A stretch of DNA of 20,000 nt from an uncultured virus (IMG/VR IMGVR_UViG_3300009154_000049). Its lineage: Duplodnaviria; Heunggongvirae; Uroviricota; Caudoviricetes. Location of the stretch: the IMG/VR virus record IMGVR_UViG_3300009154_000049. One strand, given 5' to 3'. A program made the position numbers and the translations under genes. How positions within the stretch are numbered: the first letter of the stretch is position 1; every line of letters starts with the position of its first letter. The notes beneath the pieces were generated by a model. It searched no databases, was not told the origin of the DNA, and saw only the letters and a list, made by a program, of their open reading frames with translations. Below are positions 52-17,979 of the stretch, one piece after another.

Positions 52-1344
52 TCACACTATGCTCCAGTAGCTGCCGCTGCTGACCGTGACGGTCACGCCG
101 GGATTGATGGTTATTGGACCAAAGGTCCCGCTGTTGTAACCGCTGGGAACCGTGTAGTTGGCAGTGATGGTGTTGCCGTTGGTCCAGAAGGTCTGATCAG
201 TGCCGCCTCCAGTGGCGCCTCCGAGACCACCCCACTGGGTACCATTGTAGCCCTCGAAGTAGCCAAGGCTGCTGTTGAAGCGCAGCAGCCCAGTGGCAGC
301 AGCAGGTCGCTGTGCTGTGCTGCCCACCGGCAGCAGCGCAGCATCTGTCTTGAATATGCTCATCGCGTAGGGAGGCAGTGCTGTGGTACCTATGCCAAGG
401 TTGCCACCGAATATGCCTCCGCTGACCGTGCTGACGTTGCCACCTGCTGTCATGCCTCCACCTGCGATGAGGTTACCAGTGGCATCCCAGCTGGGTCCAC
501 CAGTGCTGAGACTGCCGGGTGTCACTGATCCTGCTGCGGGTATTACCGTGGTGGTGCTGAGATTGCTGATCACTATCTCGATGGCAGTGCCCAGAGGTGG
601 TGGCGAGTTGAATATGATGCTGCTGCCCACCCAGCTGTAGGTGTTCTTGCGCTGGTACACGCCCTGGAGATACACGTTGGTGTTGACCACGCTGGTTGCC
701 GAATAGTTGCCTGTGGCAAATGTGGTCGTGCTGCCATTGCCTGTGTAGTCAAACACGGAGGTGCCCAGGGCACCCGTGGTGATGCTGCTGCCATCGCTGA
801 AGTTGATGGCACCGCCGAGGTTGACGTTGCCACCCACGGTGATGTTGCCAGTGGCACGCATGCTGCCAGTGACATCCAGCTTGAACACGGGTTGGCTAGT
901 GCCTATGCCCAGATTGCCATTGATGTCCAAGCGCATGTTTTCCGTGCCACTGGTCTGGAAAACCAAGGGCAGATAAGGACTGTTATCGCTCCTGTCTGAG
1001 GCCAGTCGCACGTTGCTTTGGTTTGATTCCAGGGTAGCAAAGCTGCTGGACAGCACGTTGCTGTTGCTGTAGGCTAGGAAGCTGCTCACAGTGCCGCCGC
1101 TGTTGGGGTGCGTGCCTATCAGCGCGTTACCATTGTATGTGGTAGTGGTGATGAAGGCACGCAGCAGAGGATTGGCATTGCTGAAGTCAGCTTCGAAGCT
1201 GCTGGCAGTGCTGTTCATTATGAGATTGCCCAGATTATCCACGCTGAGCTGCGTGGCACCGCTGGTGGTCACGTTGAAGGCAGAAGCCGTGCTCTTGACG
1301 TAGAGCGCCACCGTGCTGAGGTTCTGTGCTGGTGAATTGGCCAT
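52..1344 (-). CDS. Putative tail-fibre/virion fibre protein (430 aa)
   Basis: G/S/T/N-rich. Contains GNLGIGT motifs, one F-x-DG motif and a T7-fibre-anchor-like module (YTGNGSTTTF...VYLQGVYQ...YSWVG...IEIV). Also has an LPVGSTAQRP...RFNSSLGYFEGYNG motif and the common phage C-terminus GATGGG...GPITINPGVTVTVSSGSYWSIV. TAAATA lies 24 nt upstream. Confidence 0.8.
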   Translation of the reverse strand: MANSPAQNLSTVALYVKSTASAFNVTTSGATQLSVDNLGNLIMNSTASSFEADFSNANPLLRAFITTTTYNGNALIGTHPNSGGTVSSFLAYSNSNVLSSSFATLESNQSNVRLASDRSDNSPYLPLVFQTSGTENMRLDINGNLGIGTSQPVFKLDVTGSMRATGNITVGGNVNLGGAINFSDGSSITTGALGTSVFDYTGNGSTTTFATGNYSATSVVNTNVYLQGVYQRKNTYSWVGSSIIFNSPPPLGTAIEIVISNLSTTTVIPAAGSVTPGSLSTGGPSWDATGNLIAGGGMTAGGNVSTVSGGIFGGNLGIGTTALPPYAMSIFKTDAALLPVGSTAQRPAAATGLLRFNSSLGYFEGYNGTQWGGLGGATGGGTDQTFWTNGNTITANYTVPSGYNSGTFGPITINPGVTVTVSSGSYWSIV

Positions 1345-1414: not shown

Positions 1415-1747
1415 TCAGGGTTTTGGATATTTGTCCTTGATTGCCAAGCAGGCATCTATGTATGCCTGGATCTGCTCAGTATCCCCCTTGACAATGCCAT
1501 CCAGATAGTCCCTGAAGTCCGGATATTCTGCTGCGCGCTGTGCCTTGTAGGAAACCGCAGCATCGGCTGCAATCTTGGCTGCCCAGGCAGCATCAAGCTG
1601 TGCTTGGGTTGGCTGCGGACCCAGCTTGGCATCCCATTTCAACACCTGATCTGGCTGGCTTTCTGGCTGACCAGTCATGTAATCTCCGGGGCCATGAGAT
1701 ATATTGGCCTGTGCCAGATATGCTAGGATTTGATCGTTCAGAGCCAT
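1415..1747 (-). CDS. Small tail-fibre assembly/chaperone-like protein (110 aa)
   Basis: AAGGA RBS. Directly follows a fibre-like gene. The sequence W-D-x-x-LGPQPT-x-x-QL...YKAQRAAEYP...YLD...AIKDKYPKP resembles small XkdW/Tfa-like phage proteins (recognised by eye). Confidence 0.65.
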   Translation of the reverse strand: MALNDQILAYLAQANISHGPGDYMTGQPESQPDQVLKWDAKLGPQPTQAQLDAAWAAKIAADAAVSYKAQRAAEYPDFRDYLDGIVKGDTEQIQAYIDACLAIKDKYPKP

Positions 1748-1758
1748 GTGTTCAGTCC

Positions 1759-2550
1759 TTATGAAGAGATGCTATACAAAGATGCTTGACCCGAAAAAGT
1801 TGTTGTTCCATTGAATTGAATTTTAATAGCGGTATAAGGTGTTGTACCCGTGTTATAACCATTGAAACTTGACCAATAACCAGCTGAACCGTTGTAGGTA
1901 AATGCTGTTCCATATATTTGTACAACACCCAAACTAGTAGCAAGATTAAAATTATCAATGGTAAAATTACCATTAACTCCATAACTGCCAGTATATGTTG
2001 TAATACCTGTGGTCATATAACTAGAACCTAAACTACCCCCATAAAATTGATTACTTCCATTATTGGGAGAATACCCAAAATATCCTCCATATCCGCTAGT
2101 CAAGTACGTTGGTCCAGAGCCTATCCCCAGCAAAAATCTCAAACCATCATTGGTCGATGGTTGTAAGTTTTCAACAAACATCAGGTATCTTATATAACCA
2201 GACAATCCAGTCCACTGCAGAGCAGTTGTAGTGCCAGCTGTGGCGGTTTGCGTGGATATCAAAGTCATGGTCTGAGCGACCGCTGCGCTGGACATGAAGG
2301 AGCCGTCGCCAAACACCACGCCATAGCCTGCCGTGCTGATCTGTATGTTGCCACCTGTATGCACCGTGGGACCAAACACTGTCATTGACACATTGCTGTT
2401 GACGCTGCTGGTACCTATATTGTTGCCCACCGTGAGACCGCCATAGATGCTGCTGGTGCCTATGCCGACTCCACCGCCGCTGGTCCACAGCTGAGTGCCA
2501 CCCACTCGCAGACCGTCTTGGTCAAGCCACATCAGCTGGTTAGTGGTCAT
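1759..2550 (-). CDS. Short fibre/adhesin-like protein (263 aa) with an AT-rich, Tyr/Gly-rich C-terminal domain
   Basis: The ATG overlaps the upstream stop (ATGA at 2547-2550) and has an AGGA RBS. The N-half has GVGIGT and FGDGS fibre motifs. The C-half is a predicted beta-rich domain ending ...[12 protein letters not shown]. Confidence 0.8.
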
Positions 2551-2906
2551 CGTTCCTGCTCCAACTGTGCTATCCTGGCCTGCAGGTCTTCGATCTGTGC
2601 CTGCTGTTCTTTTACAGCTTCTATCAGCAGTGCAGTCAGTTTCTCATACTGAACAGTTAGGTAGTTCTCACCGCTCTTACTGCCAGTGCTGCTGTTGATA
2701 TCAAGATCAAACGGCGCTGGTCGCACTGCTTCGGGTAGCACTGCCTGCACTTCCTGCGCTATCACACCCACATCGTGCATCTGAGTCGGTTCGAAACCAA
2801 GGTCCTTGACCATGGGTTTCCAATCAAAAGTCACACCTCTGAGGCTGAGTACCTTGCGCAGAGCATTGGGTATCTGTACCAAGTTTTCCTTGAGCCTATT
2901 GTCCGA
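2547..2906 (-). other. Peptidase S74 / intramolecular chaperone auto-processing domain
   Basis: S-D-x-R-L-K cleavage motif (TCG GAC AAT AGG CTC AAG from 2906), G-V-I-A-Q-E motif and terminal coiled coil. Confidence 0.9.
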
Positions 2907-5369
2907 GCTATAAGCTGTGATTTCGTTTGTTGCGCTAAATGCTCCAGTGTCTGCGAAGGTAAACAGGACGCTGTTATAAGCGTTATTGATTATCTCTATG
3001 CCACCACTTTGGTTGATTCGTATGAACTTAGTAGGTGTGGTAGCACTCGCATAGGTGTTGGTCAGCGTAAAAATGCCAGCATAGACGGCACCGCCATATG
3101 TATTATTGTTGGATATAGTCATGGCCGATGCGCCGCTGCTGCCGCCGTTGGTGCTGTTTATGGTAGCAAACGTCACGTTGCTGCTGGTGCTAACGGCCTG
3201 GCCTATGCTGATGGTGCCTGTGGTGGTTATGGGACTAGGGCTCAGCGTAACGCCTGTGCCTGCGGCAAGGTTGGTTACTGTGCCGCCGCCGCTGGGGCCA
3301 GTTGGACCTGTGGTAACTGACGTGGGACCAGTTGGACCAGTAACCGTGCTGGTAGCGCCAGTTGGACCAGTTGGACCAGTAACCGTGCTGGTAGCGCCGG
3401 TGGGTCCAGTATATCCAGTTGGACCAGTAACCGTGCTGGTAGCGCCAGTTGGACCAGTGTATCCAGTGTAGCCAGTATAACCTGTAGGACCAGTTGGTCC
3501 TCCGTTTGGTCCTGTGGGACCTGTGGGAGATGCAGTGCTGGTGATGAATATGCTGCCAGGACTGTTGGTTATGCTGATACCCGAGCCTGCTGTCAGGGTG
3601 CTGAGAGTGTAGTTGGTACCATTGCCTATCAGCAGCTGACCACTGGTAGGCACGGTGTTCAAACCAGTACCACCACTGCCCACTGGCAAGGGATTGGTCA
3701 TTGTGACCACGCCGTTGCTGTTGATGCGCTGTGCTTCTGCGTAAACCTCTGAGCCAATGCCGCCAGTGAAGTAGCCAAACTTCAGTCCACCACCCGTGAG
3801 TGCGACTATGTTGCCACCACCTGCTGCGCCACCCGATACCAGTTCCAAGCCGCCGCCTGTGCTGGCAAATACGGTCAGTGCTGTGTTGGTGTTGTTGCTG
3901 GGTGTGAACGTGCCTATGCCCACTGCGCCCTGTATGCTGGCGCCGTTGGTGTTGGAGGTCAGCGGCGCTGTGCCTACGTAGCTGTTGCCAACCACCAAAC
4001 CGCCGTTGATCTCCATGGTGTTCTGTGGTTGCGTGACAGCGTTTATGCCCACGCGATAGTTAGTGCTGACATAGCTCCATGCTATAGCCGGAGAGGTCGC
4101 CGCGCTGTCGCCCCTGCGCAGATAGCCAATGCTCTGTGGTATCGTTGGATCATAGCCCAGCACAGCACCAAAGCTGATCACGTTGCCCACGGTGATCTCT
4201 TGGCGTGCTGCGTTGCCTGGCCTGCTGTTAAACAGCACATAATCTGAGCCATAGAGGCTGAACTGATAGGCAGGCGTAGCTGTGCCTATGCCCAAGCGCT
4301 TGTTGGAGTTGTCCCAGACGAAGCTGCTGCCGTCACCTGTGAAAGTGTTGCTGGTTCCAGCTACCTGTATGGTGCTGATGGGACCATAGCTCTGGCTGCT
4401 ACCGCTGCCGGTGCTTGCTGTGGTCTGCCTAGTACCATCAGGGAAGATGATGCCGCTGCTGGTGCTGGCCGTGTTGCTGATCACAACGTTGCCCCAGACC
4501 CAGAGGTTGCTGCTGTTTGTCGTGGTAGCGATTCCCACACCGCTGCTGGTTCCGATTCCCAGAGCACCAAAGAATGTGCTGACTCTGCCACCGACGTTGA
4601 TGTTGCCACCAATGCCGGCTCCGCCATTGATCAGCAGGGCCCCAGTGGTGCTGCCAGTGCTGGTCGTGCTATTGCCTATGAATAGGTTTCCAACCAACAC
4701 TGGTCCGCTGAGATAGCTGGCCACGTTGGTGTTTGAATACACGGTACCAGTGCTGGCAGTGATGAGGAAACTGCCGTCGGAAAAGTAGATGCCGCTTTGC
4801 CCCAGCGTGTTCTTGAGGATCACGTTGCCATAGAGACTGCTGCTGCCATAGACAGCAAACACATTGGACAGGCCCAGGGTGCTGCTAGTACCTATGCCGA
4901 GGTTACCACCTATGGTGCTGTTGGTGCTTACTGACACGTTGAAATTGCCAGTGACACTGGCATTCCCAGCTATGGTCACATTACCAGTGACACCGACATT
5001 ACCATTTACAGCGACATTGCCTGATATCGCAGCACCATTGGTGACTGATATGCCCTGCCTGAAGTTGGCAGACACGTTGGCATCAAATCCATACAGAGGT
5101 GTGGTAGTACCTATGCCCACGTTGCCGGCAAAGATCGCAGTGTTGGACACGGTAATGCCCCGCCTGAAGTTGGCAGACACGTTGGCATCAAATCCATACA
5201 GAGGTGTGGTAGTACCTATTCCCACGTTGCCAGTGGTGCTGGCCAGCACCACCATGCTGCCGCTGGCAGTGACCGTGCCGCTGTTGCCAGTGACCATGAC
5301 CTGGTTAGGTGGATACTGCGTGTTGTTGTCCGTGCTGGCCATGCCAGGAAACGGGACGAAATCAACCAA
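2547..5369 (-). CDS. Collagen-containing tail fibre with C-terminal Peptidase S74 intramolecular chaperone (~940 aa)
   Basis: Multiple GNVGIGT motifs, a G-X-T collagen block, and a C-terminal SSDNRLKEN...LRGVTFDWK...[15 protein letters not shown]...[14 protein letters not shown] coiled coil. Start reassigned from TTG 5384 to the in-frame TTG 5369 because GAGGAG (5382-5377) lies 7 nt before it. Confidence 0.88.
3290..3530 (-). repeat. Collagen-like G-X-T repeat block (GPT/GYT/GAT with TSTVT interruptions)
   Basis: Translated [22 protein letters not shown]...; the DNA unit gttggaccagtaaccgtgctggtagcgcc occurs three times. Confidence 0.9.
5057..5231. repeat. Intragenic direct repeat, 70 bp x2 (69/70 identical), period 105 bp
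   Basis: 5057-5126 vs 5162-5231; both encode [23 protein letters not shown]. Confidence 0.9.
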
Positions 5370-5394
5370 GGTACGGCTCCTCAAGAATGCTTGA

Positions 5395-5401
5395 TATTTA
5401 T
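5395..5401 (-). promoter_or_regulatory. Putative T4-like late promoter core (gATAAATAtc)
   Basis: ATAAATA lies 25 nt upstream of the proposed TTG start at 5369, nearly the same spacing as at 1369-1374. Confidence 0.65.
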
Positions 5402-5409
5402 CCGTGGTC

Positions 5410-5438
5410 TTGGCAACTATCCAATCGCCATGTATACT
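5410..5438 (+). promoter_or_regulatory. Sigma70-type (early) promoter TTGGCA-N17-TATACT
   Basis: -35 TTGGCA at 5410-5415 (5/6 match), a 17-nt spacer and -10 TATACT at 5433-5438 (5/6 match). Followed by a GGGAG RBS and ATG at 5458. Confidence 0.7.
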
Positions 5439-5457
5439 GTGGCCAGGGAGACATCAC

Positions 5458-5919
5458 ATGCACATACACCAAGTCATGACAGCTGCCAGCTATAGGATGG
5501 TCGAGGGTCGCGACTGGCTCTGGGACTTTTTAGGCAAGGATTGCCGAGAGATACTGTTTGAAAGCTGGGGTCTGCACGACAGCAACGAACACTTTCCTGT
5601 GAGCACTGTGTTCCACTGCAGCACCGGCGATGTCCGACAGCTCACGGTAGAGACCAAAGACGGTGCGTGGCGATGGATGTCACAGCAGTGCCATGCTGGT
5701 TACATCCTAGCCTGTGCGGATCTGGGTGAGCAGCCTTGGCAGGAAAAAGGCATAACCTGGGTCACAGACCCTGTTGAGATCGTCGACATGATCGCAGCTG
5801 CCCTACATCCAGATCGTAGGCCCGATGATGCCGACGAGAGCTATCGCTGGAGCAGCAGCGGTGACATGATAGTAGAGCGCGACGATGGCACCGGCTGGGT
5901 CAGCGTCAACCCAGATTGA
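5458..5919 (+). CDS. Hypothetical phage protein (~153 aa), opposite orientation to the cluster
   Basis: Fills the gap between two minus-strand genes and has its own promoter and RBS (AGGGAG ending at 5450). Its globular, acidic, Trp/Cys-rich composition is unlike the antisense shadow ORFs. The ORF-track start at 5404 lies upstream of the predicted promoter, so ATG 5458 is preferred. Confidence 0.75.
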   Translation: MHIHQVMTAASYRMVEGRDWLWDFLGKDCREILFESWGLHDSNEHFPVSTVFHCSTGDVRQLTVETKDGAWRWMSQQCHAGYILACADLGEQPWQEKGITWVTDPVEIVDMIAAALHPDRRPDDADESYRWSSSGDMIVERDDGTGWVSVNPD

Positions 5920-8900
5920 TCAAGCCTGGGCTTCTGTCCAGCTCAGTCGTGCCTGTATGTTCTTGGATCCAACGTCGATGTTCTGCGCCACAACAGTGAG
6001 AACGTCCGGTCCGTCTGGATATACCTGCTGACCAGCGATGTTGTTGGTTCCGCCGCCTAGTATTGAGTTACCAAGATCGCGCACGATGGTCAGATCCTGC
6101 TGTGTAACCGCATAGGTGGTACCACCTGCTGTGGCAGCGAAGAACGCGAAGATGTTCTCACCACCCACGATGGTGGTGCCGATGGGATGATATGCCACCT
6201 GCGCCAAGCTGGAACCGCCAACACCTTGGAACGTGCTGGTCGTTGGTGCTTGGATCACACCATTCAGCACCAGAGTCATGAGGAACAGACCGTTGCTGGC
6301 CAAGTCAACTTCAAACGGGCTCAGCTGCATGTGGTTAATGATTTCTTTGGTACCAAGCGGGCCTGTGATGCCGCCCTGCACTGATGGTCCTATGCGAATG
6401 CTCAACAACGCCGCACGCTGGTTCTGACCCACGCTGAGTGCGCTGACCATGCCCGCGATGAACACGAATGATTTATCGTTGTCAAACTTACCATCCATGA
6501 TCACAGATGTTCCCCAGTGCGCGATGCTTGGCGTGAAGAACGGTGCGTGCTGTTGTATGCCTATGGGTAATGTAGCAGCATAGGTATGTGTGGTATTGGC
6601 ATTGGCCATCTGCAGCGTGGTCAGCGTTATGCTGTTGGTCGCAGTGGGTGCTTGGTTCAGCGTGATGGTGTTGGGTGAACCATAGGTTATCTTCTGTATG
6701 TAGGTATTGCTGGGTATGCCCGTGCCCGTCACATACATGCCTGCCTGTATGCTGGCATTGTAGAGGCTGGTGCTAGTGGTGATGTTGGCATTGCCGCTGG
6801 TCGTGCTCACGCTGGCCACAGTACCAGCTGTCTGCCCTCTGGTGGTAACGTTGAAGCTGGTGGCTGTCTTGCTGTCATAGCTGACATATTCTGGATTGTT
6901 GTAGTCCTTGATCACCAATATGCCGTTGGTAGGGAATGCTGCGGTGTTGGCCACGTTCAGAGTGGTGGCACTAGCGGCAAATGTGCTGGTCAGCTGCGTC
7001 TCAGGCACTTCGTTGTTGACCTCATAGTGGCCTGGCAGGTTACCTGAGCGCATGTAGGATAGGTACTGCACGTTGTTGTGCTGCAGCTTGTGAGCATAGT
7101 AGATGTTACCGTCAACGGTACGCACTCCCCAGCGCACGAAGCCTGCGCCATACCAGCTGTAGTCCACGTACCACATCTGTATCTTGGTTAGATCTATGAC
7201 ATATCCACTTGGACCAGTGCCATCCAGCTTGTCAATGTTGAACGTGTTCTGCGCAATGCGCAGATCCTGCACCTTGCTGACCTGTGCCTGGCTGATGCTG
7301 GCACCGCGATAGGGCGGGCTGATGGTCATTGAAGTGTTGCTGAGTATCTGCAGCACGCGATAGGTCTGACCACGTATGACTATGTAATCAAACGGTACCA
7401 ACTGTGTGGCAAACTGCGTGGCAGCATTGTCACCAGTACCAGTGGTCAAGCCAGTTACCGTGCCGCTGCCCTGAGTGACGCTGACGTAACCAGTTATCTG
7501 TTGCGTGGCTGATCTGCGCACAGCATACAGCGTCTGCCCGTCAAATTCCCAGTAGATACCGTTCTGCTGTTCAAACAAGCCCATGCGCACCTTGCTGCCA
7601 AACCATGCGTTTGGACCTATCTGAGGTATGCCTGCGCAGGTGGTGCTGCCCAGCGTCTGTTGCGCATACACATTCAAGGTATAAGCATCCGGTGTCTGCT
7701 GCACAGTGTAATTGCCAGCATAACCACTAGTGATGCCATTGACACCAGTGCTGATGGCACTGTTGCTCACGTAGACGTTGGCACCAGCTGATAAGAAGTG
7801 CGGAGATTTGGTCTTGATGGTTATCACTGCACCCACACCTGTGTCGTTAGCTGTGATGGTGTCTGTGGGGATTGGTGGCTTGACAATGGTGCCAGTGCTG
7901 ACCTGTATGCCTTTGCCTGATTGATAGCGGAAATATCTGCGCGTCTGGCGTATCACGCTGACATTGTGCGCAACTGGGTTGCCCGTGCTGAAGAACACGC
8001 CTCCGTCAAAAGCCCTGTGGCTGATCACGAGATCGTTGCGAGGTATCACGTTGGCCACGTTTGATCCAGTGGCTGGTATGGCATTCAGCGACACTTGGAA
8101 GCTGCTGTCGTTGGTATATCCTACCACCGTCCATGATCCGTTAAAGGTGCTTACGTTTGAGTTTGATACCAACACACCGTTGCCTACCTGCAGTCCGTGC
8201 GGCTGTGCCATGGTAAACGTCGCTGTGGTGCCACCCGAAGCGAATGTGATGTTGCCCGTGCTGCTGTTCAGTGCGTAGGCAGCACCGGTGTATAGGAACC
8301 CTGGGAACACGGTGGTCGCGCTGGGGTTGAATATGCTGCCAGTAGTGCCTGTGTAGGCATATCTGCTGGTGGCCACGAGACCGTTGCCGTATTGGTTGGT
8401 GTTGTCGATGTTGAACCAACCATTGGCGCCGGCAAAGTTGGTGTCAGCCACGTACATGGACTGTCCTGCCACGGGTAGCTGTTGGTTCATGAAGTTATAG
8501 GCGGCAGCGGGATTGATCTGATTGAGGGTGTTGGCTGCCAGGGTGAGGCTGGTGTCGCTGTTGATAACTGACACAGTACCCACTGGTGTGTAGCTGCTGG
8601 TGAACAGGTAATAACCAACCTGCAGCTGCTGAGTGAACAGCGTGTTGGTTCCAACCACAGCGTTGGTACCACTTGAAACCAGTATGGTACCTGAGCCTGC
8701 TGTGAAGCCCACGTTCACTGTGAACACAGTGCTGGTGGCTGCGGCATTGATGTCGCTGACGTTCAGCGGATTGTTGACGTTGTAGTAAGCACCTGGCTTG
8801 TTGTTGGTCAGAGTTGTGAGTTCCCACTTGGTGGGCTGCAGTCCATATTCAAAGTCAGTGTCGATCAGTGCCTGTGGTTCTGATACTCTGCTCTTGCCAA

Positions 8901-9240: not shown

Positions 9241-17979
<8,739 letters not shown>

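Follow-up and report, generated by a model that had tools for sequence, protein, structure and literature searches.

An AT-rich head domain in a short fibre-type gene of an uncultured freshwater phage, probably imported by recombination

We analysed a stretch of 20,000 nucleotides from an uncultured virus (hereafter the window), in which the end of one short gene is rich in A and T. This AT-rich end is quite probably the head domain of a short fibre-type protein that was imported by recombination, through cassette replacement and allele exchange, its alleles being old and AT-rich and the head a lectin-like one for a receptor. The locus itself is ordinary host-recognition mosaicism, the usual route by which phages vary host recognition.

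The gene, its neighbours and its codon shift

Fibre and virion genes are clustered in the window, where matches to S74, collagen and PHROG tail families occur. The features needed here are the following.

52..1344, minus strand: 430-aa structural-type gene (MANSPAQN), the downstream flank, kept in the relatives L138 and L140
1368..1376, minus strand: GGTAAATAC motif, probable late promoter of the next gene and downstream seam of the cassette, where homology to L138 and L140 resumes
1415..1747, minus strand: XkdW-like partner gene (P0002), 110 aa, part of the cassette and probable fibre-assembly helper, with G or C at 54/106 synonymous third positions (GC3s)
1759..2550, minus strand: P0001, 263 aa, probable short fibre or virion adhesin, a function suggested by context
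2372..2550, minus strand: conserved start of P0001 (roughly aa 1-60), serving as the cassette's upstream homology arm
2269..2371, minus strand: neck of P0001 with a GVVFGDGS motif and host-like codons, GC3s 24/34
2104..2268, minus strand: first third of the beta-sandwich domain, conserved, MTLISTQTA to GPTYLTSGY, GC3s 21/52
1759..2103, minus strand: remainder of the domain, hypervariable, with a conserved end (SLY.ISS-stop), GC3s 21/112
2547..5384, minus strand: 945-aa tail fibre with a C-terminal S74 chaperone domain (Pfam PF13884, E 3e-16; PHROG tail-fibre matches)

The frame of P0001 (2550-1759, minus strand, 263 aa) is unbroken, its start overlaps the stop of the 945-aa gene (ATGA), and its protein has been recorded from 12 contigs. 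The protein itself matches no Pfam or PHROG family; it is probably of fibre type, judging by its context, and GxxFxDG motifs similar to that of its neck also occur in the 945-aa gene and in a 2906-aa gene. A sequence-only reading of this DNA had described an AT shift that passes without frameshift or stop, and the intact frame agrees with this; the GC figures it gave (104/300 at 1801-2100, 38/60 at 2281-2340 and 53% at 1441-1560) were reproduced exactly on recounting.

The depression at third positions that this reading had assumed is real. Synonymous GC3 of P0001 drops from 0.67 to 0.24 across the best change point, which lies at codon 104 (window 2241) and has a likelihood reached by none of 2000 permutations; in codons 113-263 G or C stands at 34 of 147 synonymous third positions versus 88 expected from the amino acids (p 8e-20). 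The minimum GC3 over 1029 windows of 150 codons in the other six genes was 0.36. Nearly all codon families are shifted in the AT-rich part, and the drop in GC3s is stepped, from 24/34 in aa 60-94 to 21/52 in aa 95-149 and 21/112 in aa 150-263, with 54/106 in the next gene (Fisher p 0.004 for the second versus the third segment, a split picked after the data had been seen). The shift was correctly placed in the C-terminal domain, but its proposed start at 2220 has to be moved, because the domain begins at M95 (2268), and MTLISTQTA, which fell to the supposed linker ahead of the domain, forms the first strand of the domain in our model.

The partner P0002 passes the Pfam XkdW profile (PF09636) marginally, with 24.8 bits against a cut-off of 24.6, and its top fold match is the XkdW structure PDB 2hg7 (probability 0.96, E 0.18); its homologue in locus L101 matches Phage_tail_APC (PF16778) too. 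A tail-assembly role has been suggested for a Bacillus phage homologue (PMC8190038).

The source is probably a large freshwater phage, jumbo and T4-like. The seven runs that contain at least half of the sampled words are freshwater metagenomes, and a jumbo phage seems likely since the 68-kb record of one relative is rated 13% complete and a homologue lies on a 493-kb contig. A 136-kb contig (L137) differs from the window at 9 of 12,550 bases, none of them in 1376-2550. Scans of viral contigs with P0001 and two neighbours returned no close relative, and 50,697 GenBank phage records gave no match; a scan of bacterial genomes returned one locus, which sits on a binned 5-kb contig and does not point to a host. 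The GGTAAATAC motif presumably resembles TATAAATA of T4. RTAAATAY occurs three times in the window versus 0.85 expected (reached by 8/200 shuffles), at 1368-1375, 5394-5401 and 9500-9507 on the minus strand; two of the three sites lie just upstream of gene starts, as late promoters would. A lone 171-aa ORF (5404-5919, plus strand) lies within the fibre cluster on the opposite strand; it has no family match and has the same place in L083.

Units of exchange at the locus and in the domain family

Syntenic relatives were found on three distinct contigs (L083/L139, which are one contig, L138 and L140), with 72-80% DNA identity in the flanks. All three keep the gene start and carry another end domain, and between them they keep the S74 fibre gene upstream (syntenic in L083/L139 and L140) and the MANSPAQN gene downstream. 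The gene after the P0001 homologue also differs, encoding 252 aa in L138 and 802 aa with DUF7483 in L140. DNA likeness to L083 and L138 stops near 2372 and that to L140 between 2449 and 2430, aa 1-43 of P0001 being common to the L140-type allele, and homology to L138 and L140 resumes at GGTAAATAC (1376-1368). Since likeness breaks within 2449-2372 and returns at this motif, and since the next genes of the relatives differ, the domain and the XkdW-like gene arrived together; as judged from these alignments, the exchanged unit runs from about 2370 to 1377 and takes in both the end domain and its XkdW-like partner. Cassettes of at least three types are known here with their DNA context. The relatives' own genes there have a GC3 of 0.55-0.59, so the locus as such is not strongly AT-biased.

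Contigs that differ from the window in two runs (X5, 12/127; X11, 12/228) both cease to match at 2424, which is codon 43 and the point of the L140-type departure. The X11 record has 208 further letters, and a co-existing second cassette is possible.

The two halves of the protein, which the sequence-only reading had proposed to search separately, have different relatives: among 22 homologues, 16 share only the start and 5 only the end domain (MTLISTQT to SLY.ISS). The swap of a fibre tip that it had suspected is supported, as relatives keep the N-half and carry other C-domains and this C-domain occurs behind many unrelated N-halves. It had also called the acquisition domain-precise and possibly recent. 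At this locus the partner gene changed too, and no close donor was found, so that "recent" is unsupported; the domain is 46-48% identical to its nearest relative, shows no change across runs from 2017 to 2025, and has a low GC3 near the norm of the family.

The end domain has 169 residues (window 2268-1762, starting MTLISTQTA). Searched alone it gave 213 representatives from uncultured phages, with a best identity of 46%; it was matched end to end in most of the matches listed (150 of 213), behind N-terminal parts of 0-490 aa. We fetched 53 loci of the family and dropped 14 near-identical copies, which left 39 loci that are still related, and in this set the domain of L122 duplicates the second copy in L109. 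The best domain identity among the fetched loci was 48%, and the median pairwise identity among 49 domain copies was 35%. An XkdW-like gene lies directly behind the domain in 23 of the 39 loci. Seven loci of small phages (L085, L095, L103, L104, L108, L109 and L112) carry two to three domain copies close together that are 31-41% identical to each other.

Exchange of domain alleles is seen within the family, where identity breaks just past MTLISTQT and returns at SLYGISS-stop. In three loci (L086, L088 and L126) DNA identity is 94-100% as far as MTLIST and drops to 24-70% in most blocks of 10 codons beyond it; their domain proteins are 45-53% identical with silent sites near saturation, and the DNA of their partner genes is 83-88% identical. 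L097 and L118 have 96% identical partners and 40% identical domains, and the domains of L112 and L113 are identical, with 61 of 872 bases differing in their flanks. Star-like in shape, with stars on 5 of 37 inner branches, the domain tree is compatible with exchange without proving it, since the carrier lineages are unclustered on it (11 changes versus 11.5 when shuffled), but a single clade for L086, L088 and L126 is not rejected (p-AU 0.30). L108 and L129, once considered as a recent transfer (domain 68% identical in amino acids), were dropped, as their partner genes are also related (83% DNA).

A codon-locked seam at the 5' border was considered as well and rejected, silent identity there not being raised (0.44 versus 0.40 expected; 0.43 versus 0.39 in the interior); at the 3' border it was modestly raised (0.43 versus 0.33 expected). 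The terminal Tyr of the family (L084-L136) is TAC in 39 of 49 copies, the conserved interior Tyr being mostly TAT and the window's copy having TAT at the terminal position, and among the last eight codons C-ending ones are commoner for the adjacent Leu and Gly. These C-ending codons may be what is left of a resident end, or may reflect a constraint imposed by the start of the next gene.

From these comparisons we propose the following course. Comparison with the relatives shows the first step, in which a cassette made up of the C-domain and the downstream helper was exchanged; its limits are the conserved start of the gene and the TAAATA motif that belongs to the following one. The domain allele would then have been replaced between MTLISTQT and SLYGISS-stop with the helper staying, as is seen in the family and as probably applies to the window's copy; a helper that stays when domain alleles change fits the order of GC3s, 0.51 in the partner, 0.40 in the conserved third and 0.19 in the variable part. 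The alleles would be old ones that pass mainly between phages of lower GC, and this circulation, together with fast evolution under weak codon selection, may hold them near an AT-biased mutational balance. The head, predicted to be a lectin-like beta-sandwich, would bind a glycan or protein of the host surface, and changing host receptors would keep many alleles in play.

AT-richness of the family and its possible causes

In 37 of 39 loci the domain is richer in A and T than the sequence around it once amino-acid content has been corrected for (median -0.14), and at four-fold sites it is below context in 36 of 39. Domain GC3 follows context GC3 with a slope of 0.51, and this regression predicts 0.33 for the phage of the window versus 0.26 seen, so the window's copy is typical of its family and a recent low-GC donor is not needed. 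In the most AT-rich carriers the domain is still below context in 10 of 11, and mixing among the sampled carriers thus cannot alone explain the AT-richness. All 9 further domain copies from these loci are low too (one of them the duplicate of L122), and GC3 is lower in variable than in conserved columns (0.17 versus 0.22). A control C-domain family from the same loci has a median of +0.06 and is below context in 3 of 11; it is seemingly more conserved, so the depression may reflect rate and not a special process. The family-wide AT depression, which the control family lacks, is the odd feature of the case. Bacterial mutation is reportedly universally AT-biased, according to one study. The simplest reading of the AT-richness is import from lower-GC phages combined with weak codon selection in a fast-evolving allele. 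No description of the base composition of this family was found in the main texts of mostly open-access papers. Given the family-wide depression, low GC3 in a fibre tip alone is no proof of recent transfer from a low-GC donor.

Compositional changes also occur elsewhere in these phages. Other fibre-type genes of the group (L137:12501-13601; L138:2838-3617 and 4121-8095) show milder C-terminal drops in GC3, from about 0.8 to 0.4 and from 0.7 to 0.36. The complete 61-kb genome G002, with GC3 near 0.6, has a four-gene block of GC3 0.14-0.26 (L147:16357-19713), and a GcrA-like gene at L146:8815-9513. In the relative G001 a RuBisCO large-chain-like gene (L151:6188-7330) lies inside a glycosyltransferase/nucleotidyltransferase cluster, and the record also has PhoH, DnaJ, Clp ATPase, peptide deformylase and folE/PTPS genes.

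We then compared the window with consensus contigs, in which rare variants are invisible, from 4 of 24 runs, one of which (X5) may stem from the campaign that yielded the source. A single X5 contig covers 900-2470 and shows 0 differences to the window, X8 (2025) is identical over 1844-2247, and X9 (2022) is identical over 1482-2039 and 2113-2296, the covered parts being letter-identical across the 2017, 2022 and 2025 runs; pieces that differ occur upstream, at 2355 and above. X11 was left out, having no real cover over 1346-2282 yet a 99% piece at 2674-3228, and this gap proves nothing. Among 17 near-identical pairs, 0 of 8,440 domain bases differ versus 445 of 91,197 flank bases, the pairs not all being independent and many of the flank differences being clustered. 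A single residue, in the neck, distinguishes two cluster members. A mutation rate able to turn 98% identity into 55% would be expected to yield dozens of domain differences in these pairs.

The template or second copy that the sequence-only reading proposed to look for did not appear in 28 kb (the window plus 8.2 kb): no template repeat was found, the best adenine-tolerant match being 44/60, nor a second domain copy or second tip, and G002 has a single domain copy. There is no recombinase among the window proteins, no reverse transcriptase among eight window and eight L137 proteins, and none in four related records, one of them complete. The 60 ORFs of at least 100 aa in G002 include no reverse transcriptase, DNA deaminase or recombinase family; its sole deaminase-like match is a dUTPase/dCTP-deaminase, and its domain copy shows the same GC3 drop. 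At four-fold sites the family has A 1725, T 1678, C 391 and G 304, with no strand or context signature, and the differences between alleles involve all six base-pair types, not adenines only, and extend to silent positions within conserved codons.

An inverted repeat of 17/18 (window 1870-1887 versus 2532-2549) pairs the start of the gene with part of the domain. It was reached by 26/1000 synonymous and 3/1000 codon-order shuffles and is probably due to chance; inverted templating from the flanks was rejected, as it is not a family trait (p 0.60). Invertible fibre switches of the Mu gin or P1 cin type have a recombinase, inverted crossover sites and a silent second tip. Such a switch was discarded here, with no second tip found in the 28 kb and no recombinase among the window proteins, and inversion at the 17/18 repeat would stop the gene at codon 11.

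The main alternative to import is that one ancient cassette arrival was followed by drift of the domain in place, under AT-biased mutation, with no later exchange and no low-GC donor. Such drift would account for a domain that is below its context nearly everywhere and yet tracks it, for the lower GC3 of variable columns, and for a partner that is host-like and silent-saturated versus its nearest relatives; the positive correlation between recombination rate and GC in 119 bacterial species (82%), as given in part of PMC11879095, points the same way. We nevertheless regard it as unlikely, because the fall in L086, L088 and L126 from 94-100% to about 55% DNA at the first codons of the domain needs a crossover, the identical domain of L112 and L113 coexists with many flank differences, and the domain shows no excess of short-term change. 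The remaining readings invoke an active process or an artefact. A dedicated process other than a diversity-generating retroelement (DGR), such as a deaminase, recombination-tied error-prone repair or a mutagenic polymerase, could load the domain with A and T, and this would suit the family-specific depression seen in all nine further copies and absent from the control, as well as the point mutations of gp38 chimeras, which PMC3157838, in its part on these chimeras, ascribes among other explanations to local error-prone repair. A localized mutator of this kind, which the sequence-only reading had considered, seems highly improbable to us, as at contig level no domain difference separates the window from L137, the members of three runs, the two cluster members or the 17 pairs from each other, nearly all codon families are shifted without signature, and no reverse transcriptase, DNA deaminase or recombinase family was found among the 60 longer ORFs of G002.

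Slightly less remote is an episodic, domain-bounded and AT-biased diversification, for example error-prone repair accompanying each allele exchange at the conserved borders, which we give a slim chance. If true, populations would be uniform between events and every copy would lie below the GC of its carrier even in the AT-richest carriers, and receptor-binding domains would have a route of diversification with neither template nor reverse transcriptase. That the domain is the target of a DGR encoded elsewhere in the genome is hardly credible: a C-terminal Tyr/Gly/Ser/Asn-rich domain within a fibre cluster would be a natural target, but the 28 kb holds no template, the four related records hold no reverse transcriptase, and changes at all base pairs and at silent sites are unlike the adenine-only pattern described in the relevant part of PMC3240598. 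The two DGR features that could be tested in full, adenine-confined variation and a variable region differing among near-identical genomes, both failed. The abrupt change in composition might finally suggest an assembly chimera, which is ruled out for practical purposes by the X5 contig that bridges the junction; the protein is known from multiple contigs, the frame is intact, and the junction sits on the domain border of the family. We thus favour recombinational import of an old AT-rich allele.

The head and its place among known systems

The domain is modelled as a beta-sandwich of 12 strands (pLDDT 90.7). Its model matched 112 predicted viral structures at E<=0.001, including Stf-repeat, collagen and tail-fibre proteins, and no solved structure at this level in Foldseek; an unnamed viral beta-sandwich protein (BFVD A0A6J5QEI2) has the same predicted fold (TM 0.88). 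The best Z against solved structures was 7.5, for GH32 C-terminal and galectin-type sandwiches, a common level, and a sequence search of the PDB gave one weak match (E 0.18). With no clear match among solved structures, we infer the binding of a receptor by the head from its genomic context. What emerges is a large beta-sandwich family, as yet unnamed, whose borders are sharp and conserved and which has an XkdW-like partner. It is a good candidate for receptor binding in uncultured freshwater phages, and the pairing of domain and partner gives a lead on the role of XkdW.

Fibre tips and their chaperones form cassettes in the stf-tfa genes of lambda, H-G of P2 and S-U of Mu. The present locus is like these in that a tip and a small downstream helper travel together, and unlike them in that the helper is XkdW-like, no invertase was seen, and contact between head and helper is putative. 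Of 116 aligned relatives of the domain, 59 match phrog_14820, a family with no assigned function against which the copy in the window stays short of E 0.001, and the same predicted fold occurs in unnamed viral beta-sandwich proteins. Like the DGR target of the Bordetella phage BPP-1, as far as PMC3240598 describes it in the part concerned, the protein belongs to the fibre region and has a hypervariable C-terminal domain; unlike that system, template repeat, reverse transcriptase and adenine-specific pattern were not found in the 28 kb and four related records, and the domain is invariant within populations.

The adhesins of T4-type phages, for which exchange near conserved motifs and a case of a lambda fibre cassette moving into T4 are described in part of PMC3157838, provide a parallel in the way they work. 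As in g37-g38 of the T4 superfamily, according to the same part of that source, a conserved anchor is joined to a variable specificity domain with exchange in or near conserved motifs, and the distal part of the gene is replaced together with the next gene; unlike there, the head has no glycine-rich gp38 motifs and is a 12-strand beta-sandwich instead, without a PDB sequence match apart from the weak one given above. In aquatic phages, the relevant parts of PMC3909814 and PMC7468147 describe metaviromic islands and flexible genes that include lectin-like, C1q-like and XkdW genes and whose variants persist over years. The variation reported here differs from these in being resolved to a domain and its borders, and base composition is not discussed in those parts of the two sources; it is like them in that variable host-recognition genes lie between conserved flanks.
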